From positions 1-50,830 of the forward strand of contig JBDRKW010000016.1 in NCBI GenBank assembly GCA_043813585.1: a DNA stretch of 50,830 bases. The letters are read 5' to 3'. Origin of the DNA: Candidatus Kerfeldbacteria bacterium. Its GTDB lineage: Bacteria; Patescibacteriota; Patescibacteriia; UBA9570; XYC2-FULL-38-9. The translations under genes and the position numbers were made by a program. The notes beneath the pieces are model-generated. The model had not been told where the DNA came from and searched no databases. It worked only from the letters and a program-made list of their open reading frames with translations. Shown here piece after piece: positions 6,023-48,977 of this stretch; within the stretch, counting starts at the first letter, position 1, and every line of letters starts with the position of its first letter.

Positions 6023-6033
6023 TTGAAGACAAC

Positions 6034-6061
6034 AAAAAACCCCGGACGCGCCGGGGTTTTT
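6034..6061. terminator. bidirectional rho-independent terminator between convergent genes
   Basis: A6-CCCCGG-acgcg-CCGGGG-T5 (stem 6040..6045 / 6051..6056). Flanked by an A-run and a T-run, between the stop of 3629..6022 (+) and the stop of rplL (-). Confidence 0.75.
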
Positions 6062-6076
6062 GATTTGTTGAAGTGA

Positions 6077-6502
6077 TTACTTCAGGTTAACCTGTGCGCC
6101 GGCTGCTTCAAGCTTGCCTTTCATCTCTTCCGCTTCCTCCTTCTTGACGCCTTCTGCAACGATTGCAGGAGCTCCGTCAACAAGGTCCTTGGCTTCTTTC
6201 AGTCCAAGCTGGGTGACTTCGCGGACTGCCTTAATCACGGCAATCTTGTTGTCGCCTGTCGCTGCCAGTTCAATGTCGAATGCAGACTTCTCTTCTGCCG
6301 CCTCGCCGCCTTCTGCGCCGCCGGGCATCACGCCCGCCATCATCATCGGAGCGGCTGCTGAAACGCCGAACTTGTCTTCCAGGATCGATACGAGCTCTGA
6401 AAGGTCCAGCACGCTCATCTGTTCGATCTCCTCGACAAGCTTCTTAAACTTTTCAGGAACAACAACGTCCTTTTTTTCCTCTTTTTTTTCTTCGTCTGCC
6501 AT
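6077..6502 (-). CDS. rplL: 50S ribosomal protein L7/L12
   Basis: 141 aa. Lys/Glu-rich N-terminal extension, then a dimerisation helix, an Ala/Gly/Met hinge and the conserved C-terminal domain ([27 protein letters not shown]...[16 protein letters not shown]). Confidence 0.95.
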
Positions 6503-6531
6503 AGGTATATGTTTAGTGGCTACTTAATTAT

Positions 6532-7059
6532 TTATGATTCTTTTTGTTCCTTAATCTGGTTGAGTGCCTGCACCAGGCCGCGGATATTGCCGCCCAACAC
6601 ATTCGCAAACCCGGAGATCGGCGATTTGAGCGAACCAACCATATTGGCCAGCAATTGCTGACGTGAAGGCAGTTTTGCGAGCGCTTCCACCTTGTCTACG
6701 TCGATCAGGCCGCCTTCGAGGATTCCGCCGTGAAACGTAAGCGCCTCGTGGTTTTTTGCATATTCGGCAAGGATGCGGGCCGGTGCGATTTCATCGTCAT
6801 ACCCAAACACGACAGATATGCCGCCTTCCATCTCCTTGGCCTTGCTCTTGTCCAGGCCGGCTTTTTCCAGCATGAGTGCGACAAGGTTCTTCTTTGCAAC
6901 CACCATTTCGCTGTCTTCCTTCTTTAGGTTGCTGCGAAGCTCCTGCACTTCGGGAACAGAAAGCCCCATGAAATTCGCAAACACGGCTCCTTTGCTTTTT
7001 TCCATCTTCTCGTTCAGGACTGCAAGCTCCTGTTCCTTTTGTTCTCTTGTCTTTGCCAT
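6532..7059 (-). CDS. rplJ: 50S ribosomal protein L10
   Basis: 175 aa, immediately upstream of rplL in the canonical order. L10-type sequence (GAVFANFMGLSVPEVQELRSNLKK ... LPSRQQLLANMVGSLKSPISG). Confidence 0.95.
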   Translation of the reverse strand: MAKTREQKEQELAVLNEKMEKSKGAVFANFMGLSVPEVQELRSNLKKEDSEMVVAKKNLVALMLEKAGLDKSKAKEMEGGISVVFGYDDEIAPARILAEYAKNHEALTFHGGILEGGLIDVDKVEALAKLPSRQQLLANMVGSLKSPISGFANVLGGNIRGLVQALNQIKEQKES

Positions 7060-7219
7060 ATCATCGTTATTATTTGAAAAAATCCGCGTACCAGCGCAGA
7101 TCCATGAAACGCTTGAAAAAGCGTTTAGCGTGCCTGCGCAGGACTTCTGTTTATGCCTGCGGTCTTCGACTATTCTATTGACCGGGTGTAAGGATACTGT
7201 ATGAGGCTTCGCCTGTCAA
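7060..7219 (-). promoter_or_regulatory. rplJ promoter plus structured leader (candidate L10 autoregulatory leader)
   Basis: Minus strand: TTGACA (7219..7214), 17 nt spacer, TATCCT (7196..7191). The leader of about 125 nt has hairpins CGCAGG-13 nt-CCTGCG and AAACGCTT-tttc-AAGCGTTT. The identity with the L10 leader class is inferred from position only. Confidence 0.45.
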
Positions 7220-7231
7220 ATGGGGCTAATA

Positions 7232-7909
7232 TTAGCTATGAATCAACGTTCCGGAAAACTCTTTTCCATCCAGGATTGTCCCGATATTGTCGATGTCGGT
7301 GCCATCGGCGATCACGACCTCTATTCCCTTTTCTTCGGCCAGCTTGGCTGCGATAGGGTCAAACGGCATGGAAAGCCCGGGTTTCCACTCGTTTCCGACG
7401 ATCTTTCTGAACTCCGGCCAGGCGATATCCATGATCGGTTTCGCCTCAGGATTGTCCTTTGGGTCAGCGTCATACACGTACTTGATATTCGACAGGTTCA
7501 CAACGCGGTCGATTCCGTTGGAAGCTGCCACCTGGACGGCGTCATAATCCGTGGACCAGCCCGGCTTCCATCCTGCTCCCACCGTTACAAGATTCTCAAA
7601 CGCCACCGGTTGCGTTGGATCGTTTATCACCTTTTCAGCTGCATCAGCTCCAAAGATCATTTTTAGAAGATGAGCATTCAGATGCGATGCATGGATGCCG
7701 AGCCAGTCGCGCTGTTCGTCTGTGAGCTGTGCGGCCTCGCTCGCACCCTCCATATATTTGCGTGCTGTCGAACCTCCGCCAACGAAGATCACGAACCGGT
7801 ACCCGTCTTTCCTCGAACGGATAAGTTCTGCAAACTGTTTCAGGAAGCCCGCCTGGATCTCGTCCGGGACAATGAGCGATCCTCCCAATGATAGTACGAT
7901 ATTTTTCAT
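7232..7909 (-). CDS. pyrH: UMP kinase, archaeal-type (amino-acid kinase fold)
   Basis: 225 aa. MKNIVLSLGGSLI ... FVIFVGGGSTARKY ... VTVGAGWKPGWSTDYDA match the short archaeal-style uridylate kinase family. Confidence 0.8.
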   Translation of the reverse strand: MKNIVLSLGGSLIVPDEIQAGFLKQFAELIRSRKDGYRFVIFVGGGSTARKYMEGASEAAQLTDEQRDWLGIHASHLNAHLLKMIFGADAAEKVINDPTQPVAFENLVTVGAGWKPGWSTDYDAVQVAASNGIDRVVNLSNIKYVYDADPKDNPEAKPIMDIAWPEFRKIVGNEWKPGLSMPFDPIAAKLAEEKGIEVVIADGTDIDNIGTILDGKEFSGTLIHS

Positions 7910-7910
7910 A

Positions 7911-8936
7911 TTAGTCTGAGTAGTATTTATTTTTTTGCTCCAGGTGTTCGTCGAATGTTTCGGTGAACACCGCGTCCCCTTCCGGCGTGGTCAGGAAAAA
8001 GTAATAATCCGTCTCCGTCGGGTTGAGCACGGCGTTAATCGCGTCCAGGCCCGGATTGCAGATCGGCCCCGGCGGCAATCCCGGGTGCGTATATGTATTA
8101 TAGCGCGATTGTACGGCTAAGTCATCGAGCGACGGGCGCGTGGTATTCTTGCCGGTAACATAATTGACGGTCGCGTCAGATTCCAGGGGATAGCTGTCTT
8201 CCAGCCGCTTCAGAAAGATGCCCGCCCCGATGCGGCGCTCTTCAGGAGTGCGCAGCTCTTTTTCCAAAATACTTGCAAGAGTGAGTACTTTATAAAACGT
8301 CATGCCCGAAGCAGCGACCCTGCGCTCCATGTCAGGCGTAATGCGCGACTCGAAATTATCCACCATCTTTTGGAGTATCTCTTCGGTAGGCGCATCCCTG
8401 TAGAGTTCATACGTGTCCGGGAATAAGTAGCCTTCGAGTCCTGCGCTTGCCGGCTTGCCGCCATAGATTGCCATGCTGCTGTCTCCTATGTATCCGCTTC
8501 CGGTCAGCTGTTCGAATTCATCCGGATCGATCCGGAGGCCCGCGGTAATTAGTTCATCGTAGACTTCGGTTGAATCCCAGCCTTCAATGGTGGTGACGGT
8601 GACTTCACGACCCAGAATAATCCCCTGCGCCATCACGTCCACAATATCAGCTGCTGATGAGTTTCCCGCTATCACATAATCACCTGCCTGCAGGTCGTTT
8701 GCCTGCCCTGAAACAAATGCATAGGCCTTAAACCAGAACGGTGAACGCACCATGCCAAGCTCGTCAAACGTCTGCACGACGCCGTTAAGGCCAATACCGT
8801 TTTCTATTGTCACTTCAACCGCGATCTCCTGCTGCGACGCGGGTATATAGACCGCGCTCAACCCCCAGACCCCGACAATAGTAATCGCGATAATACCGCC
8901 GGCGATAACGCCAATAACTGCGCGTGCTGCACTCAT
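7911..8936 (-). CDS. mltG: endolytic murein transglycosylase MltG (YceG-like)
   Basis: 341 aa. N-terminal TM anchor, then the YceG domain (LTLASILEKE, TVNYV, YNTYTHPGLPPGPICNPG). Its ATG overlaps the upstream NUDIX stop (ATGA). Confidence 0.9.
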   Translation of the reverse strand: MSAARAVIGVIAGGIIAITIVGVWGLSAVYIPASQQEIAVEVTIENGIGLNGVVQTFDELGMVRSPFWFKAYAFVSGQANDLQAGDYVIAGNSSAADIVDVMAQGIILGREVTVTTIEGWDSTEVYDELITAGLRIDPDEFEQLTGSGYIGDSSMAIYGGKPASAGLEGYLFPDTYELYRDAPTEEILQKMVDNFESRITPDMERRVAASGMTFYKVLTLASILEKELRTPEERRIGAGIFLKRLEDSYPLESDATVNYVTGKNTTRPSLDDLAVQSRYNTYTHPGLPPGPICNPGLDAINAVLNPTETDYYFFLTTPEGDAVFTETFDEHLEQKNKYYSD

Positions 8937-24565: not shown

Positions 24566-25984
24566 TTACAGCGCTTTGCGTTTCTTAAAAAGGATTAAGG
24601 GGGTTTTCAGCAGAATGATGATGTCGAGCCACAATGACCAGTTTTCAACGTAAAATGTATCCAGGCGCACTTCATCGGCAAACTCCAGGTCGGAACGGCC
24701 GGACACCTGCGACATGCCTGTCATGCCCGGCTTGATGCGGAGCGCGCCCTTCTGGTGCTTGTTGTACTGCGCAACCTCTTCCGGAAGATGCGGACGCGGG
24801 CCGACAAGGCTCATGTCGCCTTTCAATACCAGGAACAGCTCCGGCAGTTCGTCAATGGAATATTTGCGAAGGACTTTCCCGATTCGCGTCACGCGCGGGT
24901 CATCCACAATTTTCACCAGAGGCGACCCTTTGCGGATGTTCTGATCCTGCATGGATTCTTCATAGCGCAGCGAGTCGGTCTTTGGCTTCATGGTGCGCAG
25001 CTTAAAGTAGAAAAACGGCTTGCCGTGCTGGCCGATGCGCTTCACCTTTGTTCCATCGTCTTTGCGTGAAAAGAAAATCGGGAAACCGGAATCGAGCACA
25101 ACCACAATCATTGCTGCTACGATGAGCGGCGATAAAACTATGATAAATATTGTCGAACCGATAATATCGAAAATACGCTTGAGGATGCGGCCCCAGCCGT
25201 CCAGGCGCGTCTGCTTCAGTTCAACAATCGGGATGCCGCCGATCGGGCGGATGGCGATATTCGACAGCTGCGTGTCGAGCAGCGCGGCCGCGTATTTATA
25301 GGTAATATGATGTTCGTCGCAGAATTCGAAAATAACTTTGCTCTCGGCGCGGGAGATATTCGGGTCGGTCTGGATGATTTCGTCCACCAGGTCCTTCTCA
25401 ATAAGTTCTTCTGTCTTTTTGCGCGCTTCTTCGTTGAAGTCCGCGAATTGAAGCCGGACATGGAAGCCGAGCGCTTTGTTGTTCGACAGTTCGTTGGCGA
25501 CCAGTTTGGTCACATGGTTCTCGCCGATCAATACTGTATTGATGACGCCGATGCCTTTCTTGAACAGCGACCGTTCAATATATAAAACAATAAGCCGTGC
25601 GGCCGACACATAGAAAACCGCGATGGCAAACGCCACCAGGATAATGAAGCGCGAAGAAAACAGGTCGCGGTTGAAAAAGAATAATACGATGATGAGGAGC
25701 ACGCCTGTGGAACAGGCCAGGAAGATCTTTCGCACCTCTTCAACGATGCGTCGCGTGCCGCGTATGTTGTACAGACCGCTGAGAGCAAAAATTCCCACCC
25801 ACGCGACTGCTGTAATGAGCACGACGGCAAAGTAGCTGTTGAACGGAATTTCGTATGTTACCTCGACCCAGTCAACAACCGTCGTGTTGAAACGCAAAAA
25901 ATACGCAGAAAGACCTGCGGCTGCGAGCATGATGTAGTCGATCGGCAGCAGGATTGCGCCGAAGATGAGTTCTGATCTCTTCAT
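24566..25984 (-). CDS. polyprenyl-phosphate sugar-phosphotransferase (WbaP/EpsL-type priming transferase)
   Basis: The track ORF extends to a GTG at 26134, but that extension covers the 3' part of RNase P RNA. The ATG at 25984 gives MKRSELIFGAILLPIDYIM. TM helices, then the bacterial sugar transferase domain (SIDELPELFLVLKGDMSLVGPRP). Confidence 0.85.
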   Translation of the reverse strand: MKRSELIFGAILLPIDYIMLAAAGLSAYFLRFNTTVVDWVEVTYEIPFNSYFAVVLITAVAWVGIFALSGLYNIRGTRRIVEEVRKIFLACSTGVLLIIVLFFFNRDLFSSRFIILVAFAIAVFYVSAARLIVLYIERSLFKKGIGVINTVLIGENHVTKLVANELSNNKALGFHVRLQFADFNEEARKKTEELIEKDLVDEIIQTDPNISRAESKVIFEFCDEHHITYKYAAALLDTQLSNIAIRPIGGIPIVELKQTRLDGWGRILKRIFDIIGSTIFIIVLSPLIVAAMIVVVLDSGFPIFFSRKDDGTKVKRIGQHGKPFFYFKLRTMKPKTDSLRYEESMQDQNIRKGSPLVKIVDDPRVTRIGKVLRKYSIDELPELFLVLKGDMSLVGPRPHLPEEVAQYNKHQKGALRIKPGMTGMSQVSGRSDLEFADEVRLDTFYVENWSLWLDIIILLKTPLILFKKRKAL

Positions 25985-26028
25985 TCGTAATAATTCAAAT
26001 GCTCTTTTGTGAGCTGTATTGGCGGAAA

Positions 26029-26448
26029 CACTCCGGTAAGCCGACTTCTGTCGCTGCGGTAAACCGCAACGGATAGCTATCTGTCTGGGATGTACGTTGC
26101 CGCACTTCTCAAGCCCCTTAAAACCGGGTTGCACCAGGCAGGGTTTGCCATCACTCCCCGCTCACGCGGGGTGAAGGCATGTCGCATGCAGGCCGGACGC
26201 GCCGAAGCGCACCAGGCGGCTGCACACACCACACCTCTTTTCACCTTTCACCTGCAGAATTGCAGGCTAGTATTGTCTCTGTGGCACTTTCCCTCGATTT
26301 ATAAAGCACACGCGATAGATCCGATCGTACATGCTCATTTATATCCGGGTTGCTGTTAGCAACTGCCTATGGTTGGCCGAAACCAACCGGTGGTCGGACT
26401 TTCCTCCCCGACATGCGTAAAACGCAGCCGAGGCAGCTATCTGGAGTA
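26029..26448 (-). ncRNA. rnpB: RNase P RNA, bacterial type A
   Basis: Minus-strand sequence contains the universal elements GGAGGAAAGUCCG (P4 5' strand), CCAUAGGCAG, AGUGCCACAGAGAC, GGUGAAAGGUGAAAAG, GCUUGAGAAG and CGACAGAAGUCGGCUUACCGG (P4 3' strand). P1 is ACUCC/GGAGU and P2 is GAUAGCU/AGCUAUC. The ends are uncertain by a few nt. Confidence 0.9.
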
Positions 26449-26503
26449 TTTCATTGTCAAACAGCCCACAAAACAACACCTGAAATTCAGTGGACACGCG
26501 CGA

Positions 26504-26532
26504 ATGATAGGATATTTTATGCGTTTTGTCAA
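26504..26532 (-). promoter_or_regulatory. candidate promoter upstream of RNase P RNA
   Basis: Minus strand TTGACA (26532..26527), 17 nt spacer, TATCAT (26509..26504), directly after the rnhA stop. It would give a precursor leader of about 50 nt ahead of the predicted mature 5' end. Confidence 0.45.
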
Positions 26533-26533
26533 G

Positions 26534-26935
26534 TTATTTGTGATCGTCCATCGCCTTATTGGCGAGTGCGTCTGCGACTGTATTCTTCTCGCGGCGTATA
26601 TGCGTGAAACTGACTTTGCCGATTTGTACTGTAAGGTTGTGGATCTTCAGGTACCACGGCGCAAGGTCGGGATCTTTTACTTTATACTCGCCGTTGAGCT
26701 GTTTAACGACCAGTTCACTATCCAAATAGCAGTCGCATTCGGTAGCGCCGAGACTTTCAGCCCGCGTCAGCGCCTTCACGAGCGCCTGGTACTCGGCCTG
26801 GTTGTTTGTGGTCTTGCCGATATACTCCGACAGCTCGTCCACGACCTTGTCTTTCGTGTCGTAGAGCACTGCCCCGATGCCGGCCGGACCGGGGTTGCCG
26901 CGCGCGCCGCCGTCCGTGTAAATTCGCAGTTTCAT
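26534..26935 (-). CDS. rnhA: ribonuclease HI (RNase H type 1)
   Basis: 133 aa. YTDGGARGNPGPAG, NNQAEYQAL, DSELVVKQ, REKNTVADALAN carry the DEDD catalytic pattern. ATGA overlap with the recJ stop. Confidence 0.85.
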   Translation of the reverse strand: MKLRIYTDGGARGNPGPAGIGAVLYDTKDKVVDELSEYIGKTTNNQAEYQALVKALTRAESLGATECDCYLDSELVVKQLNGEYKVKDPDLAPWYLKIHNLTVQIGKVSFTHIRREKNTVADALANKAMDDHK

Positions 26936-28635
26936 GATGGTAGTTCTATATCTTTAATTTCTAGCTGGATTTCGCGGTTGCCGTTCCATTCATTAATGCC
27001 GATGGTAAACGCAATGCCGATCTCGTCGCCGGTGGCAAGCCGTTGCGCAATCTCCCCGCAGCTGAACCCGATGCACTTGCGCGTCACACCGTTCTGCGCA
27101 ACCGTCATGCGCAGGTGGCTCTTGGTCTTGCCCACGCAGGAATATTCGCGTACCTCCGCGTTGCGCGCCGCAAACACCGGCTTGGGGTTGCCTTCACCGT
27201 GCGGTGCGAACTGTTCCAGCTCCTGCACCAGCTTCCAGTCAATATCCGAAATCTCAAGCTCTGCCTCGATAGAAAGCGTCTTGCGCAGGTCCTTGTCTGC
27301 CAGCTGTTCGTTTGCCAGCGCCCGCATGCGCTTCTTGAATTCTTCAATGTCTTCCTCCTGTTTGAGCGAAAACCCGCAGGCGCGCGGATGGCCCCCGTAT
27401 TTATGGAAGAGCTCGTCCATGCTCTGGAGCGCTGCGATAATATCAAAATGTTCGATAGAGCGGCCGGATCCCACCACCTCGTCACCCATTGTCGTAATGA
27501 CAAACGCGGGCCGGTTGAACTTTTGCGATATATTGCCGGCAACAAGCCCGGTCAGGCCGAGCGGCCATGCGTCCGACTCCATGAAAATGACATATTCATC
27601 TTTTTGCGGCTCTGCCTGCGACAGCGCTTCTTTGGTCATCTGCGCAGAGAGCTGCTGCCGCTCCTTGTTCGTGCGACCAAGATCCTCGGCATACGTCCGC
27701 GCTTTTCCTTCATCCTCTTCCACGAGCATATCGAAGGCGGCGTTGGCATGCTTCACCCTGCCGGCTGCGTTGATGCACGGCCCCACCTTAAACATGATGG
27801 TTTCCGTATCAAGAGCATTCGGATCAATTCCGGCGGTTTCGAACAGCGACTGCAGACCCGGTCGCAGGCTTTTCTTCAGAACTATCAACCCGTATTTTAC
27901 CAGGACCCGGTTCTCGCCGATCAGCCGGACATAGTCCGACACCGTGCTGATGGCGACAATGTCCAGCAGCCACTTTTCGAACGCTTCACCGAGCTTGTAT
28001 TCCTTAATAAGCGCCTGGCACAGCTTGAATGCCACTCCGGCTCCGGCCAGATGCTCAAATGGGTAGGTTTCGCCCGAAACTTTCGGGTTAATAATGGCAA
28101 ACGCGCGATCCGGCAATTCCGGCGGTTCGTTATGATGGTCGGTGATAATCACGTCCATGCCCAGTTCCGTCGCCTTCTCCACCTCCGGCTTGTTCGAAAT
28201 GCCGCAGTCAACGGTGATGATCAGGTTTGTCTTGTCGTCATGCAGCGACTGTACCGTTGCCATGTTTAATCCATACCCTTCCGTATCCCGATGTGGCAGG
28301 TACACCGTCACGTCCGCACCCGTTTTCTGCAGTGTTTTATATAAAATTGCGGAAGCGCCAACGCCATCCGCGTCATAATCGCCGTGAATGACGATTTTTT
28401 CCTTCTTCTCCACTGCCGCAGCAATCCGGTCCACCGCCTTGTGCATGTCCCGGAACAAGAACGGGTCATGCTGGTCGTCGCCGTAGTCGGGCGTGAGGAA
28501 CATATCCACATCCTTTTGCGTCTCCAGCCCGCGGTTATGCAGCAACTGAAGAACGACCGGACTGATTTCCGGAAATTTCCCGCTCACGTTGTCCGGCACC
28601 TGCGCGCGAAGCACCCATTGGTAGCGTTCAGCCAT
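26932..28635 (-). CDS. recJ: single-stranded-DNA-specific exonuclease RecJ
   Basis: 567 aa. DHH motifs (IHGDYDADGV, TVDCG, ITDHHNEP), DHHA1 (GGHPRACG) and a C-terminal OB-like region. Confidence 0.9.
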   Translation of the reverse strand: MAERYQWVLRAQVPDNVSGKFPEISPVVLQLLHNRGLETQKDVDMFLTPDYGDDQHDPFLFRDMHKAVDRIAAAVEKKEKIVIHGDYDADGVGASAILYKTLQKTGADVTVYLPHRDTEGYGLNMATVQSLHDDKTNLIITVDCGISNKPEVEKATELGMDVIITDHHNEPPELPDRAFAIINPKVSGETYPFEHLAGAGVAFKLCQALIKEYKLGEAFEKWLLDIVAISTVSDYVRLIGENRVLVKYGLIVLKKSLRPGLQSLFETAGIDPNALDTETIMFKVGPCINAAGRVKHANAAFDMLVEEDEGKARTYAEDLGRTNKERQQLSAQMTKEALSQAEPQKDEYVIFMESDAWPLGLTGLVAGNISQKFNRPAFVITTMGDEVVGSGRSIEHFDIIAALQSMDELFHKYGGHPRACGFSLKQEEDIEEFKKRMRALANEQLADKDLRKTLSIEAELEISDIDWKLVQELEQFAPHGEGNPKPVFAARNAEVREYSCVGKTKSHLRMTVAQNGVTRKCIGFSCGEIAQRLATGDEIGIAFTIGINEWNGNREIQLEIKDIELPS

Positions 28636-41148: not shown

Positions 41149-43500
41149 TTACTTCGCTTTCTTTTCGTTCTTCTTCTTCATTGCTTCAATTCTTGCATCT
41201 TTCTTTCTTGCCCGGTCTGCGAATTCTTTTGCTTTCTTTTGTGCTTTTTTATCTGCCGAAATTGGAATGGAAAAGCTGAATATCGAACCTTTGCCTTCGC
41301 CTTCCGATTCAGCCCAGACCTTGCCGCCGTGCTCTTCCGTGATCTTTTTGGCGATGAACAAGCCAAGGCCGGAACCGCTCGGGTCAACGCGCGCAATGCC
41401 GGAACCGCGGACAAACTTGCTGAACAGGTTCTTTGCCTCTCCTTTTGCTATACCGACGCCGGTGTCCTGCACGTGGACGGAAATATGCTTCCCGTCCGGC
41501 TGATCCCCCCATACTGTTACGGTGCCATTTGGCGAGTATTTGATGGCGTTATCGATCAGGTTGAGGATAACGTCTTTGATCTTGTCGTTGTCCACTTCCA
41601 CTTCAGGGAGTTCTGACGGTTTGATGACGAGGTTGACGCCGTGCTTTTCTGCTGTCGGCTTCAGTTCTTTGTATACGGATTCGATTGTTTCGAAGAACGG
41701 CACCATCTTGTAGTTCATGACAAAGCGGCCCGCCTCGATGCGCGTGACATTGAGGAAGACGTTGACCATGCGGATCAGGCGCTGGGTGGCGTCCAGGATG
41801 TCCTTAATGACCGGGTCCTGCTGTTTGGGCACTTTGCCGTAGTCGCCCGAATCGATCATGGACAGGTAGCCGATAATGCCTGCAAGCGGGGTACGCAGCT
41901 GATGCGATGCGATGGACATGAACTCTGATTTGGCCTGGTCCAGTTCGCGCAGTTTGGCGTTTGCTTTCTGCAGGTCAGCTGTTGCCTTGTCCACTTCGCG
42001 CTGCAGGGTGATGGCGAATTCCTTCTGTTCCTGGTACAAACGCGCTTTTTCGATGCCGGATGCGACTTGTGGGCTGATGACTTCCAGGAGCTGGATATCG
42101 CGAACGGAGAACGCTTCGCCAGATTTCTTTTTTGTCAGAAGCAGTACGGCTACAAGCTTATTCTTTGTGGAGACAGGCACCGCGACATGGCCTTCGATTT
42201 CTTCGAGATGCGAGCGAATTGCCTCATACCGTTTGCGGTTTTTCGGAGTTTCAGCGTTTGAAACCTGCATGTCGAGCTCATCAAGAATGATTGGATCGTC
42301 TGTATGTAAAAGCTCTTTAATAAGGGGCGACTTGCGGGATAGAGTGCGGTGCTTTGATGCCTTTTTTTGCCTTGATGCGAGCTCTTCTGGTTCAATAAAT
42401 AATTCCTCTCCAACAGGTAAAAGGATTGTTGCGTGCTCAACACGCAATCCGTCTTCGAGATCCGCGGTAAAATGTTTTACTAAATCACCAAGCTCGATTT
42501 CCTCATTAATAATATCTGTAAGTCGTTTCGTTACTACTGGATATTCAATTGCAGCTTTGAAAAATATTTTGTCGGTTAATCGTGCCAAAAGTTTTTTTAA
42601 AGGCTCTAATAATACTACGACTAGCACCGATGCTAAAGCAATCACTAGTAGTTGTCCGAGTTGCGTTGTACTAAGTACCAGAGTTGCACTTAAGTAAATA
42701 ATCGCAACAAAGAAACCTGTTACTAGAAAAACTAACGTAGCGTATACTAATGCGCGTGTAACAACCGTTCGTATATCAAGAAATCTATAGCGGATAATAG
42801 ATATCGTCGTAAAACCTATTAAGAAAATTGTAGAAGCTGGGCCAAAGATACTGTATTGCGCAACATGCAAAATGACCAGTACGAGATTTGTTGCCACAGC
42901 AAATATTGCTGTCAGGATTACTCCTAACAACATGAATTTTATTTGTTGCCTACGTAATCCACCTGATTCTCTAAATTTGATTATTAAATTAGTAAATAGA
43001 ATAATAAGGTTAAGAATGATATAGAGAAATAAGTATGTATATAGAAAACCTGCAAAAGGCTCTGTTCCCCAATCATGAATAATTACACTTTCCAAATTAT
43101 ATTTTGTTGGAAATAATACCAAAATCGGAAGTTCGAGAATCAATAGAAATATTGCGTATTTTTTTATAGAAGCTCTACTTCTATACGGAAATAAGAAAGA
43201 AAAAATACCTAGAAAATAAAATGCGAGTGATGGCCCGAGGATCGCTGCGCGTGTCCAGAATAAAGCAATATCATAGTCTTTGCTGGTATCCGCGAAATAT
43301 AGACAAAGCACCCAAAGTGCAAGGGAAAAAATAAAAAGGCAAAAAATTCGATTAACACTATTCCGTGAAGCACGGGAAATTACAAAAATACCTATTAATA
43401 TTAAGAAAATAAAAAGGGGAATATAGTAAAATGCGACACTCATGACTACAATGATACTTGACAAGTTGCTATTTTTATGTATATTTATGATACCAAACAT
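41149..43500 (-). CDS. sensor histidine kinase with N-terminal 7TM-type sensor and GAF-like domain
   Basis: 783 aa. Multi-pass N-terminus ending in IIRYRFLDIRT. GAF-like middle region. H-box FMSIASHQLRTPL, N-box LNLIDNAIKYS, G-boxes QDTGVGI and GSGLGL. Lys-rich tail. No response regulator in the window. Confidence 0.85.
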   Translation of the reverse strand: MFGIINIHKNSNLSSIIVVMSVAFYYIPLFIFLILIGIFVISRASRNSVNRIFCLFIFSLALWVLCLYFADTSKDYDIALFWTRAAILGPSLAFYFLGIFSFLFPYRSRASIKKYAIFLLILELPILVLFPTKYNLESVIIHDWGTEPFAGFLYTYLFLYIILNLIILFTNLIIKFRESGGLRRQQIKFMLLGVILTAIFAVATNLVLVILHVAQYSIFGPASTIFLIGFTTISIIRYRFLDIRTVVTRALVYATLVFLVTGFFVAIIYLSATLVLSTTQLGQLLVIALASVLVVVLLEPLKKLLARLTDKIFFKAAIEYPVVTKRLTDIINEEIELGDLVKHFTADLEDGLRVEHATILLPVGEELFIEPEELASRQKKASKHRTLSRKSPLIKELLHTDDPIILDELDMQVSNAETPKNRKRYEAIRSHLEEIEGHVAVPVSTKNKLVAVLLLTKKKSGEAFSVRDIQLLEVISPQVASGIEKARLYQEQKEFAITLQREVDKATADLQKANAKLRELDQAKSEFMSIASHQLRTPLAGIIGYLSMIDSGDYGKVPKQQDPVIKDILDATQRLIRMVNVFLNVTRIEAGRFVMNYKMVPFFETIESVYKELKPTAEKHGVNLVIKPSELPEVEVDNDKIKDVILNLIDNAIKYSPNGTVTVWGDQPDGKHISVHVQDTGVGIAKGEAKNLFSKFVRGSGIARVDPSGSGLGLFIAKKITEEHGGKVWAESEGEGKGSIFSFSIPISADKKAQKKAKEFADRARKKDARIEAMKKKNEKKAK

Positions 43501-43507
43501 CTTGGAA

Positions 43508-43535
43508 AATCGCTAGCCCTAGCAGTGCAGCGATT
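43508..43535. promoter_or_regulatory. nested palindrome in the 50-nt divergent intergenic region
   Basis: AATCGCT (43508..43514) pairs with AGCGATT (43529..43535). The inner palindrome is GCTAG-CC-CTAGC (43512..43523). A TACAAT -10-like box for the kinase gene overlaps at 43539..43534 (minus strand). Confidence 0.35.
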
Positions 43536-43550
43536 GTAGCGGAGGAAAAA

Positions 43551-44132
43551 ATGATGTTACGGTTCATCATCAGCATCATTCGAGGCATCTTCGTAGGTGC
43601 AAAGTTTGATCGAGACTACCGTCTCTCATCCAATGAAATTCTGGATGACGAAGTGGTCAGTGAGCAAGCTTGGCGAGAATACGAAGCGGGCTTCGCTGGC
43701 CAACGAAAGCGCTACCCTCACGATCAGATCAATTATGACCATGCTGACTTCGTGGCAGCCATGACTGACAATCGCCTTCTGAAGATGGTTTTTCACTTCA
43801 GAGAACAGCCGATTGCTTTCGCGATCGTCGCTAAACCAGGTCACGCTGATCTTGCTCAATGGGTTGCTCCAACATCATTCGGTAACCCGAGTGACGTTGG
43901 GTACCTAACAGTCCTCTACGTATATCGTAGTGCCGCGTCGATTGGAAACGGACGTAGGTTCGTTCGATATATAGTACGTGAGCTGGGTACAAAATACCCG
44001 AACAAGGTGTTCGGGTTCGACATTGCCAGCGGCAAGAAGATGCTGGCCCGAATGATTCAACTGGAAGCATTCTTCCAGGGGTACATCATGCGGTATATCG
44101 GTTCTCAGGATTACTATCGCATTCAATCCTAA
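43551..44132 (+). CDS. hypothetical protein, possibly GNAT-like acyltransferase
   Basis: 193 aa. Strong SD (GGAGGAAAAA then ATG). Weak GNAT-like segment YLTVLYVYRSAASIGNGRRFVRYIVREL. Mid-range GC, unlike its AT-rich surroundings. Confidence 0.4.
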   Translation: MMLRFIISIIRGIFVGAKFDRDYRLSSNEILDDEVVSEQAWREYEAGFAGQRKRYPHDQINYDHADFVAAMTDNRLLKMVFHFREQPIAFAIVAKPGHADLAQWVAPTSFGNPSDVGYLTVLYVYRSAASIGNGRRFVRYIVRELGTKYPNKVFGFDIASGKKMLARMIQLEAFFQGYIMRYIGSQDYYRIQS

Positions 44133-44145
44133 GTTCCGATTTTTT

Positions 44146-44553
44146 TTATTTTCTTAAATTTGTATGAAGGATATAATTTTCAGTCTTAAAAAATTTCTTG
44201 GAGGTTTCGACAACTACGTTAACGTCATAAAATTTACAGCTAAATATATCCATATAAACAGCATCGCTTTCATTCGCAAAATGCCCTGATACTAGTGACG
44301 ACTCGATAAGTTGAACCATTGAATAGCCATGAACTCTAGGATCATCACCAAATTCAACGATTTTAGTGTCTTCAAATCGTTTCACACCAAGCCTATCACA
44401 CAATTCATGTGTATAATTTCTGATGTTTTCTTCATCACGTAATAATTCTGGTTCGCAGCCATAAAGGTCGATACTCGTATAAAGGCCCCATGCGCCCGTC
44501 TCATCATATTCATCCTTCGAATAAATTTTATCACACCTCGGAGTACTGTCCAT
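44146..44553 (-). CDS. S-adenosylmethionine decarboxylase-like pyruvoyl proenzyme (SpeH/SpeD class 1 related)
   Basis: 135 aa. LYGC, then the self-cleavage-type motif LIESSLVSGHF and the downstream DIFSCK, as in small AdoMetDC proenzymes. AT-rich. Confidence 0.6.
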   Translation of the reverse strand: MDSTPRCDKIYSKDEYDETGAWGLYTSIDLYGCEPELLRDEENIRNYTHELCDRLGVKRFEDTKIVEFGDDPRVHGYSMVQLIESSLVSGHFANESDAVYMDIFSCKFYDVNVVVETSKKFFKTENYILHTNLRK

Positions 44554-44793
44554 AAGAGATAAATAATATTTATAACTTACGGCATAATACCAAATATATA
44601 GATTTTACACAATACAAACTAGCGTTTAAAAAACTCAGGCACGCCGGAATCGTTTAATCTTTGCGTGTGACTCTATTATTATCTTCTACAAATTCAATGC
44701 TCTAATAAAATTAAAAAAATGAAATGTAGGCCACAAAAAATAGATATCTGTCTGAATAGCGCAAAATAATGAAACGCTCATATTATATATTTC

Positions 44794-46221
44794 TTAGCAT
44801 ATTTTTCTTACCGCTCCATAATATGTCAATACTGCAGTTAGCCACTTGTTGAACTCCACTGCCAATTCTTCAAATCGTTTAATTTTTTCAATAGTAATCA
44901 TTTCTTTATCATTCATAATACTAGCAGTAATGATTGCTCTTAAAGACTTGCTCTGATTAAATAGTGGAATTAGGACATCCAACTGATCTTTTTCCATGTG
45001 TCTTAATAATTCATCTAACCATTCATCAGAGAATATATTATTTTCATATTTATATTGATCAATCATTATTTCCTGCTTGAGAATTATTTTCTTCTGGATA
45101 TTTAGCGCTTTAGGATAAATATGATCTAACTGGAGTGAAAGTTTGTTTGAATTATTTAATGTTATCCATTCTTTTTCTGGATAAACCAGAAAATACACCG
45201 ATGTATCAATTCTGTTAAATTCCTTTTGCAGGTGGTATTGAATATCATGTGAGAGTATCTTAAAATATTCATATTTATCTATCCGTTTCTTTGGTTTTGT
45301 TGCATGAAAAAAATTATAGTCATTTTTAGGAAGTATTCTTTTTTTATCTGGACGAATGAATCGATTCTTTTTTGTAAGTAATAATAATGTTATAAGCAAT
45401 ACTCCAGTAAAGACTAATTTCAATAATATTACGGCGTCTTGATCTAACACCTGGTTCATGACAAATAGTAGCGACACTAAAAGATAAATAAAACCTCCAA
45501 GTATTAGAAATATTAGACTTTGTGTTATTAATGACACAGATCTGAAGAATCGATATCTTGTTATTGCATATGTAATAGAGGTTGAGAAAAACAAAGTGCC
45601 AACTACTCCATACAAAGGATCCATGTAAATATTCATCCATTCGAATAGAATTGCGTTGTTGACTATCCCGATAACACCGGAAATAGCAATTCCCCACATA
45701 ACATATTTCTTTTGTTGTCGCTTTATAAGCGACTTTTCGTTTCTAATCTGAAAAAATAACAGAAGCAATGCAATTCCAACATAGATTAAAAAATAAGGAA
45801 TAAAAACATTATACAAGGGGGTTCCAATAATTTGACCGTACGCTGCATTAGTGGATGTAGAGCCAACAGCACTAAATACTCCGAGAGAGAATGGTAGCAT
45901 CGCTAGTGGAGGTATAAAAAGCAAAATAGAAATCCATTTTGATATAGCTCGTCTCGATGGAAGAATGCTTACAAAAAAAAGGAGTGTCGATGGGATGAAT
46001 AATACTGAGACAAGCGACGCTTGATCTAAAACAATGATAAGTTCCGTATTAATAACCAGAGAGGCGTATAGATGTATGAAGCCCCAACATGCGATTTGTA
46101 GAGTAATAAAAGAAAAAACTAGCTTCTGTAATATGTGAGGTCTATCTATTAATAAATAAATCGTTAATACAATATTAATAATTACTACGAATAAAGCGAT
46201 TAGTTGAATAATTGATAACAT
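44794..46221 (-). CDS. 7TM sensor-domain membrane protein without kinase core (paralog of the kinase N-terminus)
   Basis: 475 aa, about 25-30% GC. The TM region aligns with the kinase sensor: KRQQKKYVMWGIAISGVIGIVNNAILF...ITYAITRYRFFRS versus RRQQIKFMLLGVILTAIFAVATNLVL...TISIIRYRFLDIR. The soluble tail of about 200 aa has no H-box or ATPase motifs. Confidence 0.6.
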   Translation of the reverse strand: MLSIIQLIALFVVIINIVLTIYLLIDRPHILQKLVFSFITLQIACWGFIHLYASLVINTELIIVLDQASLVSVLFIPSTLLFFVSILPSRRAISKWISILLFIPPLAMLPFSLGVFSAVGSTSTNAAYGQIIGTPLYNVFIPYFLIYVGIALLLLFFQIRNEKSLIKRQQKKYVMWGIAISGVIGIVNNAILFEWMNIYMDPLYGVVGTLFFSTSITYAITRYRFFRSVSLITQSLIFLILGGFIYLLVSLLFVMNQVLDQDAVILLKLVFTGVLLITLLLLTKKNRFIRPDKKRILPKNDYNFFHATKPKKRIDKYEYFKILSHDIQYHLQKEFNRIDTSVYFLVYPEKEWITLNNSNKLSLQLDHIYPKALNIQKKIILKQEIMIDQYKYENNIFSDEWLDELLRHMEKDQLDVLIPLFNQSKSLRAIITASIMNDKEMITIEKIKRFEELAVEFNKWLTAVLTYYGAVRKIC

Positions 46222-46443
46222 ATGTTAGTAGTTCAAAAAATTATCTTTGCCTTAGGCCGAGAAGCAAAATTGATAGCCCCTCGGCCTATGACGTCCCTAT
46301 TCAATTGTAAAGGTATCTAAACGTTATAGTACAATGTTGTCAAATATATTATTGGCTATTAAGAGCCGTTAAAATTTTACCAGGTAGTAATTGAATACAA
46401 TTTTCTATACTTCAAAGAAGTATCAACTTATCCACAGACGGCT

Positions 46444-46485
46444 AAAAAAAGCCCCCGAGTACCACACTAGGTGATAATCGGGGCT
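46444..46485 (-). terminator. rho-independent terminator ending the GC-rich island operon
   Basis: Minus strand AGCCCCGA-19 nt-TCGGGGGCT followed by T7. The stem encloses the TAG stop of ORF A (46467..46469). Confidence 0.65.
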
Positions 46486-46970
46486 AACGGCTCCAAAGCC
46501 AGGAAACAGGTTCCGGCCGGAAATCCGTGTTCGAACCAGCCCATGTTCAGTGTCCAGGTGCCGTCAGTACCTTGCTCGACGTAGACGGCGCGCTTGCTGG
46601 GCGCATCCGTCGTGACGTTGCCGAGGGCAATGATGCACCGGTCGGTGCTGACCAGGCGCTCGAATTCGCAGAGCGCCGTGAGCTGCGGCAGTCCCGCATG
46701 CCGTAGGCCGAAGCGCTCCAGTATGCAGGCCACCTGGTGCATGGACGCGGCAGTGTCGAGCCGCAAGACCCACAGGTCGTACCGCTCCACGCGCGGGATC
46801 CTGATGACCGGGAACCGGTGCGTGATGCACGGGTTGACCCAGGATAACCTGCACGCGTCGATCATCTCGAACGATGTGCGGTTTCGGTCCTGCAGCACCC
46901 AGTTCCGCGCGCACATGGTGAACCCGATGGCGTCGGGGTGGAGTATGAGCGCACCTTCGCTACTTGTCAT
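46467..46970 (-). CDS. GC-rich island protein A (shares domain with B and C), unknown function
   Basis: 167 aa. ATG overlaps the end of B by 11 nt. Shared module: RLSWVNPCITHRFP ... ILERFGLRHAGLPQLTALCEF ... CIIALGNV ... GWFEHGFPAGTCFLAL. Confidence 0.6.
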   Translation of the reverse strand: MTSSEGALILHPDAIGFTMCARNWVLQDRNRTSFEMIDACRLSWVNPCITHRFPVIRIPRVERYDLWVLRLDTAASMHQVACILERFGLRHAGLPQLTALCEFERLVSTDRCIIALGNVTTDAPSKRAVYVEQGTDGTWTLNMGWFEHGFPAGTCFLALEPLAPIIT

Positions 46971-47967
46971 CGGAATCGTGCTCGGCGTCCGGATCGGGCG
47001 TGAACGGCCTGTTCTCGTCGAGCGTCGAAGCGTTGGCGTCGAGCCCGGAACGGACTACGGAGACGATCGGCCTCATGTTGGTGTGGCACGCGCTCAACCG
47101 CCCGATGCGCGCCTCAACCTCGTCCACGCGCAGCTCACTCCCGGGCGGGAGCGTGCCGATGCGATCGAACTGGTCCAGGTCGGGCTCGCCGTCCGGTGCG
47201 GGCGGTCTGCTGAACCCCACCTCGCGGCCGTACTGTTCGCCGTCCAGCGCCTCGGCGATCATCCGTTGACGCGGGTGGTTGTTGTCCAGACGGGGGTGCC
47301 TGATCGGCGTATCCGCGTTGACGGACTGCTCGCTGGCAACCGCCAGGAACGTCCAGTCGGCCGCCCACCGGTGCTGCGTGAACATCGGCCGGAGCTCCAG
47401 CCCGAAGTTGGTGCGCGTCAGAGTCAGAACATGCACCTCCTTGGAATGGTCCTTGTGTGTGCTGCCGATGGCCGCGATGCGCTCGTTGAGAGCCATCGCG
47501 AACCGTTCGCGCGCGAACGCGCACAGGTGTTCGATCCGTGCGGGGCGCAGACCCTCGTTGAGGATCGCGCTGCTGATCTCGTCCCAGCCGGCTTCGTAGC
47601 CGAGCCGGAAGAGCACCATCTGCGCGCAGGCCAGGCCGCTGCCGTCCGGGTCGGCGAAGAAGTTCTCGCCGGTGACCATCCGGTCGACCTTGTCCAGCTT
47701 GCCCATGCGGACCATCGCCTCAACCGTGAGGTCGTAGTCGATCTCCACCGGGAAGGTGGTGATCCCCAGGCGGTAGTCGCGCAGGATCAGGTCGCTGACC
47801 GCGTCCAGCGTGAGCTCACCCTTCTCCGTGGTGAGGTGGTGCACGGCCTGCGCCGCGCTCGGGCTCTTCTCGTTGAGGATGCGCAGCAGCTTCTGCCACA
47901 CGTCCATCCCGATGCCGAATCCGCTCATCATGTGCCGGATCTCTGCCGGCGTTCTCTTGGTTCCCAT
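46960..47967 (-). CDS. GC-rich island protein B, unknown function
   Basis: 335 aa. SD AAGGAGG 6 nt before the ATG. Central shared module (VEIDYDLTVEAMVRMGKLDKVDRMVTGENF ... ILNEGLRPARIEHLCAFARE ... RIAAIGST ... HRWAADWTFLAV) plus a helical N-terminus and an acidic, probably disordered C-terminus. Confidence 0.65.
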   Translation of the reverse strand: MGTKRTPAEIRHMMSGFGIGMDVWQKLLRILNEKSPSAAQAVHHLTTEKGELTLDAVSDLILRDYRLGITTFPVEIDYDLTVEAMVRMGKLDKVDRMVTGENFFADPDGSGLACAQMVLFRLGYEAGWDEISSAILNEGLRPARIEHLCAFARERFAMALNERIAAIGSTHKDHSKEVHVLTLTRTNFGLELRPMFTQHRWAADWTFLAVASEQSVNADTPIRHPRLDNNHPRQRMIAEALDGEQYGREVGFSRPPAPDGEPDLDQFDRIGTLPPGSELRVDEVEARIGRLSACHTNMRPIVSVVRSGLDANASTLDENRPFTPDPDAEHDSDDK

Positions 47968-48132
47968 GCTGTTCCTCCTTTTTTGTGCGCTCCCCTCGCC
48001 CGCCCTATGCGGACTGAAAAAGCGCGTCGGTTACAGCGTCCTGCGCGTTGCTCGTACGTACCTGCGCAAAACGCTGCAACCGACCAGATGGGCATTTTAA
48101 AATAATGTTGATTATGAAGGTGCGAACAGGTG

Positions 48133-48162
48133 AACATAACGGGGAAATTGGCTGTTTGTCAA
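48133..48162 (-). promoter_or_regulatory. sigma70-like promoter for the B-A unit
   Basis: Minus strand TTGACA (48162..48157), 18 nt spacer, TATGTT (48138..48133). Leaves a leader of about 155 nt. Confidence 0.5.
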
Positions 48163-48227
48163 TGCCTGCCAGTCCCCTGTTTCAGTAAAAAAAGAAGGTC
48201 ATAGCTGGTGCCGGAAATTCTCCTGAC

Positions 48228-48743
48228 CTAGCCCCGGTCCACCTCGCGGTAGACCAGGAAGCGGTGCTGATCGGCGTACCAGACGCCGTCCAGCCAATGC
48301 CGGACCAGGCCGCGGTCGTTCGGCGAACCGGTGAGCATCAGGACGTCCTCGCCGTCCTCGTCGCTGCGGTTGATGCAGGTGGCGCCCATCGCGACCACGT
48401 CGTGCTCGCGCTGGGCGTTCGGGTAGCGACGTGCGAACCCAAGCAGGTGCTCGGCGCGCGCCAGCTTCCACCCGTTCTCCCGGATCTTGTGCAGCGCCAC
48501 CTCGGTGGTGACGCCGTACCGGAAGGTTACGACGCCCATGGTATGGCGCCGCATGCCACTCCCCCTGGTGGGGAAGTTGAGGCTATCCACTCCGTCCTCG
48601 GCCCAGTCGAGCCGGGCCTTGTTGACCATCGTCTCGGTACTCTCCACCATGATTGTCATGGCGAGCACGTTGACGAAGCAGAGCGAGAAGCCCGAGTTGA
48701 AGACCTCCGGGTCGTCCATCTGCAAAGCGGGAAATGCCACCAT
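48228..48743 (-). CDS. GC-rich island protein C, unknown function
   Basis: The track start is a TTG at 48854. The ATG at 48743 is preceded by GGAGGAGG with a 6-nt spacer, giving 171 aa (MVAFPALQMDD...). Shared module: RLDWAEDGVDSLNFP ... IRENGWKLARAEHLLGFARR ... DVVAMGAT ... WLDGVWYADQHRFLVY. Confidence 0.65.
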   Translation of the reverse strand: MVAFPALQMDDPEVFNSGFSLCFVNVLAMTIMVESTETMVNKARLDWAEDGVDSLNFPTRGSGMRRHTMGVVTFRYGVTTEVALHKIRENGWKLARAEHLLGFARRYPNAQREHDVVAMGATCINRSDEDGEDVLMLTGSPNDRGLVRHWLDGVWYADQHRFLVYREVDRG

Positions 48744-48924
48744 GAGTTTCCTCCTCCTACCATCCTTCATAGCGCCCTCCCAGACACTCATTATTATTGC
48801 ACTGAGAGTGCGCTTTGTCGGTTGCGATCCTCGCCCGTGAATGCATCGTTGCAAAACACCGGCAGGAAATTCAACCGAAAAGACGCTAAAAACGCTATTC
48901 TATCCCAAAAAAATGGGACAGCCG

Positions 48925-48952
48925 AATATAGCATATTTTCAGGATTTGTCAA
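48925..48952 (-). promoter_or_regulatory. sigma70-like promoter for gene C
   Basis: Minus strand TTGACA (48952..48947), 16 nt spacer, TATATT (48930..48925). Leaves a leader of about 175 nt. Confidence 0.5.
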
Positions 48953-48977
48953 GGGTATTTGAGAATTTGCGCTTCTG

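Follow-up and report, generated by a model that had tools for sequence, protein, structure and literature searches.

Three genes of a GC-rich island in a Kerfeldbacteria contig belong to a family of diversity-generating retroelement target proteins of Patescibacteria

Diversity-generating retroelements (DGRs) of clade 2 are restricted to Patescibacteria, or Candidate Phyla Radiation (CPR), and their target proteins typically lack recognisable transmembrane segments and conserved domains (PMC8144416). CPR DGR targets were predicted to be new variants of C-type lectin (C-Lec) domains (PMC8144416), and Wu et al. 2018 left the CPR classes of variable repeats (VRs) as 'unknown VRs' (PMC5758913). 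The commonest annotated DGR targets are DUF1566 and FGE-sulfatase C-Lec domains (PMC11661182). Moreover, targets located remotely from the retroelement have been documented (PMC5758913, PMC8144416). Here, we analyzed three minus-strand genes, A, B and C, that form a GC-rich island between about 46.44 and 48.96 kb of a 50.8-kb stretch of DNA from a Candidatus Kerfeldbacteria bacterium (contig JBDRKW010000016.1; the whole stretch is called the window below). The three genes are divergent members of a protein family whose canonical members are the variable proteins of Patescibacteria DGRs. Like the targets described for this group (PMC8144416, PMC5758913), they encode a homologous module of ~140 aa in a host of the same phylum, are small, carry no recognisable Pfam domain and no evident membrane anchor, are GC-richer than the genome and are present in tandem or multiple copies per genome. 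Unlike those targets, A, B and C have neither a template repeat (TR) nor a reverse transcriptase (RT) within the 50.8 kb and do not end in RF[AL]AVRK. Furthermore, A and B lack the adenine depletion and the NN[C/T] codon footprint, and B has a C-terminal extension of 122 aa.

The initial annotation had regarded the module common to the three proteins as undescribed and had been unable to place it in a named family. As far as curated libraries are concerned the latter still holds: Pfam, NCBIfam, PADLOC and PHROGs gave zero matches for A, B and C. Sequence searches of the PDB with B, with a 3-sequence profile and with a 117-sequence profile returned no meaningful match to any chain. When B and C were searched against 5.8 billion proteins with a word index, nothing apart from the query sequences was retrieved, and tblastn of B against genome contigs gave no match. 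However, the module is not undescribed. In an exhaustive HMMER search of 1.84 billion representative proteins, a profile built from A, B and C recovered 3,147 proteins at E<=1e-3, of which 790 reached E<=1e-10 and 7 reached E<=1e-30. The profile search that had been proposed as a check thus revealed no orphan module but a family that comprises 3,147 or more representative proteins, which are the Patescibacteria DGR targets. Since relatives in the hundreds are recovered with scores of 38-86 bits by phmmer and profile HMMER, the apparent orphan status of A, B and C is a prefilter artefact. For genome scans this is a warning that a result of 'no homologues' from a word-indexed search may merely reflect its sensitivity.

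A typical member of the family has 150-220 aa and consists of a variable helical N-terminus of ~50 aa followed by the module, the consensus of which is F.V.VDY..SL.EMI.AGKYDWVN.DIT..NFP..G.G..E..LVHF.R..SS..V..EL...G[LF]RPA.IEELLA[FL]G..YP.LQ[KR].FPIVALGSVW....G.R.VP.L......R.L.L.W....W....RF[LA]AVRK. Some family proteins contain two or three modules in tandem. A Pfam scan of 117 members at E<=1 revealed no consistent family, and the members are annotated as hypothetical proteins in the data sources.

A scan of species-representative genomes yielded 77 family loci. In 19 of them, a short open reading frame (ORF) that follows the family gene at a distance of ~300 nt matches ~46 residues of the family profile. 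Nucleotide alignment identified this downstream element as a ~135-nt same-strand copy of the 3' end of the family gene, with every difference in this alignment located at an adenine of the copy. This copy, the TR, is rich in AAC/AAT codons. Among 25 VR/TR-like repeat pairs, 416 of 487 mismatches were located at TR adenines, and the non-adenine mismatches derived mainly from two tandem-target comparisons in one locus (L083) and from the pair in another (L105). The next ORF after the TR encodes 320-370 aa with the motifs LGNLTSQ and YADD and matches RVT_1 at E values of 1e-20 to 5e-24. The order in these loci, a VR-bearing target gene followed by TR and RT, is that of a canonical DGR cassette. 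Therefore, on account of the adenine-specific TR/VR mismatches and the adjacent RVT_1 reverse transcriptase, the family is the variable (target) protein of Patescibacteria DGRs. A Pfam-less, unannotated family with 3,000 or more clusters is hereby linked to DGR hypermutation in this phylum. In canonical members the VR comprises the last ~45 residues (GSVW...RF[AL]AVRK), and the VR/TR homology runs out at RF[AL]AVRK. Adenine makes up 0.12 of the canonical VR compared with 0.27 of the remaining gene, and NN[C/T] is found at 97% of the template-Asn codons. In such members, the TR ~300 nt downstream of the VR would be transcribed and copied by the adjacent RT with errors at adenines, and the resulting cDNA would overwrite the VR and thereby rewrite the binding surface. 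Some loci (L083, positions 5134-8351; L046; L081; L076) also carry paired family genes, either tandem or divergent. In L083, one TR and one RT lie downstream of two targets whose VRs are nearly identical.

Nearly all of the 77 loci are from metagenome-assembled genomes of Patescibacteria, with hosts among Paceibacterota, Niyogi-, Lipton-, Nealson-, Falkow-, Campbell-, Buchanan- and Magasanikbacteria and others. The enolase encoded in the window is 58-65% identical to those of Paceibacter, Magasanikbacteria, Uhrbacteria and Falkowbacteria, and the best matches of its mfd are likewise from Patescibacteria. Therefore, the backbone of the window belongs to the same phylum as the family hosts. A survey of the neighbourhoods of homologues, which had been suggested earlier, showed that the family genes stand singly among housekeeping genes and that TR and RT are the sole conserved neighbours; beyond these two, it found no conserved gene context. 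A phage origin of the family was rejected, as relatives are encoded on just two viral contigs among 2.9 million (L107 and L108 from IMG/VR; 43% identity over the module).

We further investigated how A, B and C relate to each other. The existence of one common module, as proposed in the initial annotation from alignment by eye, was confirmed by shuffle tests and by the recovery of the profile family. Smith-Waterman scores compared with 2,000 shuffles were clear for B-C (p ~8e-7), moderate for A-B (~1e-3) and marginal for A-C (~0.04); pairwise similarity was also examined by BLASTP. Homology of the three proteins is established because the A+B+C profile recovers the large family and each protein alone matches canonical members at 38-86 bits, with identities of 15-33%. 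In phmmer, B and C match each other with 19 bits and A matches neither of its neighbours, whereas canonical members score 38 bits with A, 83 bits with B and 86 bits with C. As judged from these scores, A, B and C are separately diverged members of the family, each of which has its nearer relatives among the canonical members and not in its two neighbours. The paralogy claimed for the three genes thus stands in the sense of homology and not in the sense of local duplicates: local duplication as their source was rejected, given the 19 bits of B-C against the 83-86 bits to canonical members.

The fold of the module was addressed by structure prediction of C. With a 49-sequence family alignment AlphaFold returned a model with a pLDDT (per-residue confidence) of 89.1 and a pTM (overall fold confidence) of 0.84, while the single sequence gave a pLDDT of 37. 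The predicted topology is beta-alpha ... beta-alpha-alpha-beta-beta-beta-beta, with the VR-equivalent on the last strands. In a Foldseek search against the PDB, the top ~47 matches of the model, although weak, were all C-type lectin-like domains (NKR-P1, DCIR, langerin, dectin-1, CD23). Matches in BFVD were weak as well and included C-type lectin-like proteins of poxviruses and herpesviruses. The structural check that had been proposed therefore provided a confident model together with weak matches, and a C-type lectin fold of the module is probable, not proven. The family has hence gained a confident predicted model, and its probable C-type-lectin-like fold is what the DGR literature had predicted of CPR targets. 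Similar to the family of A, B and C, the variable proteins Mtd of a Bordetella phage, TvpA of Treponema, the archaeal AvpA and TaqVP of Thermus have a C-terminal variable segment (PMC8144416, PMC6328139). They adopt a C-type lectin fold, and C-type lectin-like domains are likewise the only structural neighbours found for the C model in the PDB, but these variable proteins show no sequence similarity to the family even with the 117-sequence profile. DUF1566 and FGE-sulfatase C-Lec domains have the same role as the family module, that of a C-terminal diversifiable binding domain; nevertheless, the Pfam models Lectin_C, DUF1566 and FGE-sulfatase gave no match in 117 members at E<=1. The family motif G-[LF]-R-P-A-x-x-E-L-L resembles the DUF1566 motif W-R-L-P-x-x-x-E-L, which is a possible lead. 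In other proteins the module forms the C-terminal part of a fusion with a DnaJ J-domain, a Ser/Thr protein kinase, an AHSA1/SRPBCC domain or DUF1064 (P0017, P0085, P0088 and one further member), and these fusions fit a recognition or binding domain. In one relative (P0008), two modules are preceded by an N-terminus rich in repeats and by a probable membrane segment.

The search for the remaining parts of a DGR in the window was negative. When the three genes were compared with the window by blastn to find a TR, nothing longer than 38 nt was obtained, and a six-frame search with the family hidden Markov model (HMM) detected no further family fragment in it. An HMM of 17 CPR DGR RTs reached a best E of 0.42 in the window, and no RVT_1 was found among the window ORFs scanned. 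The absence of a local RT and TR is not decisive, because among 55 related loci for which 2.5 kb or more of downstream sequence was available just 24 have an RT and 21 a TR, and copies without RT are still adenine-depleted in the VR (0.125 vs 0.275 elsewhere in the gene; RT-linked VRs, 0.117). Where the flanks are long enough, over half of the family copies lack both RT and TR within ~6 kb and yet possess adenine-depleted VRs. This observation points to trans or remote targeting as a widespread feature of Patescibacteria, or to RT loss in the recent past.

Regarding A, B and C themselves, the adenine fraction of the VR-equivalent compared with the gene upstream is 0.20 vs 0.18 in A, 0.19 vs 0.20 in B and 0.16 vs 0.19 in C. 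At nine template-Asn columns NN[C/T] codons occur five times in A (56%), four times in B (44%) and eight times in C (89%). Since neither A nor B has adenine depletion or the NN[C/T] footprint, both are apparently not being diversified. The footprint of C is, by its sequence, ambiguous. The RF[AL]AVRK end is missing in all three proteins, as A ends in CFLALEPL, B continues from TFLAVASE for 122 more residues and C has HRFLVYREVDRG. One or more of the genes, C above all, might still be a live remote target that a DGR elsewhere in the genome diversifies in trans. The low frequency of RT and TR in the related loci and the adenine-depleted VRs of RT-less copies would agree with this, as diversification without a local RT seems common, and so would the codons and the preserved VR scaffold of C and the remote targets known from the literature cited above. 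We nevertheless consider a live remote target unlikely. The VR-equivalents of A, B and C have no nucleotide similarity to one another, so that one TR cannot serve all three; none of the proteins has the canonical end; A and B lack both signs of diversification; and the probability of finding eight of nine such codons in C by chance is ~0.06, a hand estimate based on a third-position C of 0.53 and on the assumption that a few per cent of the codons end in T.

In our view, A, B and C are independently diverged members of the Patescibacteria-specific family of DGR variable proteins and are most likely retired or never diversified, with fixed binding specificity. They would act as small, apparently soluble proteins with the ~140-aa module as ligand-binding domain, probably of C-type-lectin-like fold. 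More doubtful, though possible, is that they constitute a small fixed repertoire of former DGR targets, lectin-like binders that dropped out of the hypermutation cycle and were retained, each with its specificity frozen, while the lineage itself may have lost its DGR. Several points weigh against the explanation of retired or never diversified proteins. Gene C retains the VR scaffold R-x-L-x-x-x-W-L-D-x-x-W...RFLVYR along with its eight of nine NN[C/T] codons. The window represents 50.8 kb of a genome of probably ~1 Mb, and TR and RT may lie elsewhere in it. Close orthologues of A, B and C were not found in databases by the word-indexed search and tblastn, and one or more of the genes could be decaying. 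Concerning the fold, the Foldseek scores of C (E 0.04-0.5, probability <=0.92, TM score 0.36-0.41 normalised to the query and 0.45-0.52 to the target) are below usual significance, and the solved DGR variable proteins were not among its top 50 matches. Finally, the promoters described below were called from sigma-70-like consensus matches alone. As such, the three genes are of modest interest, being further members of an already known DGR-target family that are most likely no longer diversified. As DGR-target homologues seemingly out of the diversification cycle, they bear on the retention of binders in tiny symbiont genomes.

The composition of the island had been taken as a hint at horizontal acquisition. 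Its GC richness was confirmed, with 0.63-0.68 over 46.45-47.95 and 48.25-48.70 kb compared with 0.53 in the remaining window and 0.27-0.38 in the adjacent block, and the excess of A, B and C over backbone genes is 0.10-0.13. However, 78 family genes exceed the rest of their own locus or genome by 0.097 ± 0.058 on average, with a maximum of 0.24 (loci L029-L105). Because the GC excess is typical of the family, a high-GC donor is needless to explain the island, and the earlier suggestion of horizontal acquisition has lost its main support. In RT-linked loci the mean GC is 0.536 for the gene, 0.515 for the gene without VR and 0.61 for the VR, but 0.38 for the RT and 0.424 for the rest of the locus. 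Adenine mutagenesis was rejected as an explanation of the excess over the whole gene, since adenine is not depleted outside the VR, where the coding-strand A/(A+T) ratio is 0.55. A class-wide GC richness of Patescibacteria DGR target genes of ~10 points, which concerns the whole gene and excludes the RT gene, may be new. In term searches of PMC8144416 and PMC5758913 we came across no mention of GC richness of DGR target genes, and in PMC5758913 GC is treated solely as a deviation of the whole DGR from the host. For genome scans, a GC-rich 'island' may accordingly be a trait of a gene family and no sign of transfer. On a 2.5-kb contig carrying one relative (P0005) the gene has a GC of 0.59 and its flanks 0.33-0.45.

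A recent acquisition of the island from a high-GC donor, whose composition it would still reflect, could account for a GC of 0.63-0.66 and a GC at third codon positions (GC3) of 0.83-0.91 next to backbone genes with 0.53-0.56. It would also be in line with the second compositionally odd block, an AT-rich one, which the island adjoins, and with the lack of close relatives in the word-indexed search of 5.8 billion proteins. We regard this scenario as quite improbable, since the family is essentially confined to Patescibacteria, with the two viral contigs as the only finds among 2.9 million, and its genes are GC-rich within their own genomes while the RT gene is lower (0.38 vs 0.42). Moreover, the GC excess is restricted to the coding sequences, the intergenic DNA of the island having a GC of 0.35-0.51. 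No flanking repeats or att sites of the island were found, and the RNase P RNA, as the only Rfam match in the window, leaves no tRNA as insertion site. Neither integrases nor transposases were present among the scanned ORFs of the window, in agreement with the initial annotation, which had noted no mobility gene. In addition, A, B and C are unlikely to have arrived as one block of recent duplicates, because they are not mutual closest relatives. A transfer of the genes between Patescibacteria is possible. The sharp composition steps at ~46.44 and 48.96 kb could also be taken for junctions of an assembly chimera, and the singleton status of A, B and C in word-indexed and exact searches together with the degenerate conserved family residues, most of all in A, for a sign of non-functional relics. 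Both appear very improbable to us: the steps match the boundaries of coding sequences, and the same pattern is seen in the 78 family genes from independent assemblies. Besides, the ORFs are intact and have the codon-position GC structure of genes, ribosome-binding sites and a strong terminator, and C folds confidently on the family alignment in the predicted model. We retain divergent members of the DGR variable-protein family of Patescibacteria as the most likely explanation of the island. The features of the three genes are listed in Table 1.

Table 1. Genes, VR-equivalents and predicted expression signals of the island (window coordinates)
Feature	Position	Strand	Description
Gene A	46467-46970	minus	167 aa; most divergent family member; GC3 0.83; matches the family at up to 38 bits
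Gene B	46960-47967	minus	335 aa; matches the family at up to 83 bits
Gene C	48228-48743 (from ATG)	minus	171 aa; divergent family member with predicted C-type-lectin-like module; GC3 0.91; up to 86 bits
VR-equivalent of A	46485-46622	minus	residues 117-162
VR-equivalent of B	47329-47466	minus	residues 168-213
VR-equivalent of C	48243-48386	minus	residues 120-167, GATCINRSD...HRFLVYRE; aligned to the VR/TR columns of the family
Promoter-like site upstream of C	48925-48952	minus	TTGACA-16-TATATT with TG extension; 11/12 consensus matches
Promoter-like site upstream of the B-A pair	48133-48162	minus	TTGACA-18-TATGTT; 10/12 consensus matches
Intrinsic terminator 3' of A	46444-46483	minus	hairpin of -19.8 kcal/mol, then U7; z = -3.4; 0/200 shuffles fold as well

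Our analysis recovered the three ORFs at the same coordinates as the initial annotation, including the overlap of 11 nt between the 3' end of B and the start of A, ATGACAAGTAG, which suggests translational coupling. The GC at codon positions 1/2/3 is 0.57/0.48/0.83 in A, 0.65/0.44/0.90 in B and 0.65/0.41/0.91 in C. Owing to this structure (GC3 0.83-0.91, GC2 0.41-0.48) the minus-strand frames are the coding ones, and two long plus-strand ORFs, 46594-48105 and 48264-48962, were rejected as genes because they are shadow ORFs with a GC3 of only 0.69 and 0.58. Gene B consists of a helical N-terminus of the family type, the module at about residues 75-213 (47329-47745) and the C-terminal extension (46963-47328), which is acidic, proline-rich and absent from canonical members. 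As judged from the GC3 of these three segments (0.94, 0.90 and 0.87), the extension is coding-like in composition. For gene C, an alternative upstream start codon, TTG, is located at 48854. The ATG at 48743 is preferred because the ribosome-binding site GGAGGAGG lies 6 nt upstream of it and the GC is lower in 48744-48854.

The initial annotation had also described two self-contained transcription units. Promoter-like sites, GGAGG and a terminator after A were recovered, but the hairpin 3' of C is no stronger than shuffled sequence (z = -0.2). Six promoter-like sites were found compared with 1.4 ± 1.6 expected. From the two sites in Table 1, leaders of ~175 nt to the ATG of C and of ~160 nt to the ATG of B at 47967 are predicted. 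GGAGG ribosome-binding sites lie upstream of both C and B, where AAGGAGG precedes the ATG of B. An Rfam search at gathering thresholds gave no match to a riboswitch or leader RNA in the island. The genes would thus form two expression units with their own promoters, C alone and a translationally coupled B-A pair.

Apart from the island, the window contains several further features. The AT-rich block adjoining the island extends over 42200-46440 (GC 0.27-0.40) and includes a 475-aa protein with HisKA_7TM only (44794-46221, GC 0.31) and a small S-adenosylmethionine (AdoMet) decarboxylase (44146-44553). The composition shifts within a histidine kinase gene at 41149-43500, of which the N-terminal 7TM half is AT-rich and the catalytic half has a GC of ~0.52. 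On the plus strand, an ORF of 797 aa at 3629-6022 gave no Pfam match at E<=1e-5. The RNase P RNA of bacterial class A (26021-26452, minus strand, 153 bits) is overlapped by the listed ORFs 24566-26134 and 26369-27934, which are probably over-extended or shadow ORFs where they overlap this RNA.

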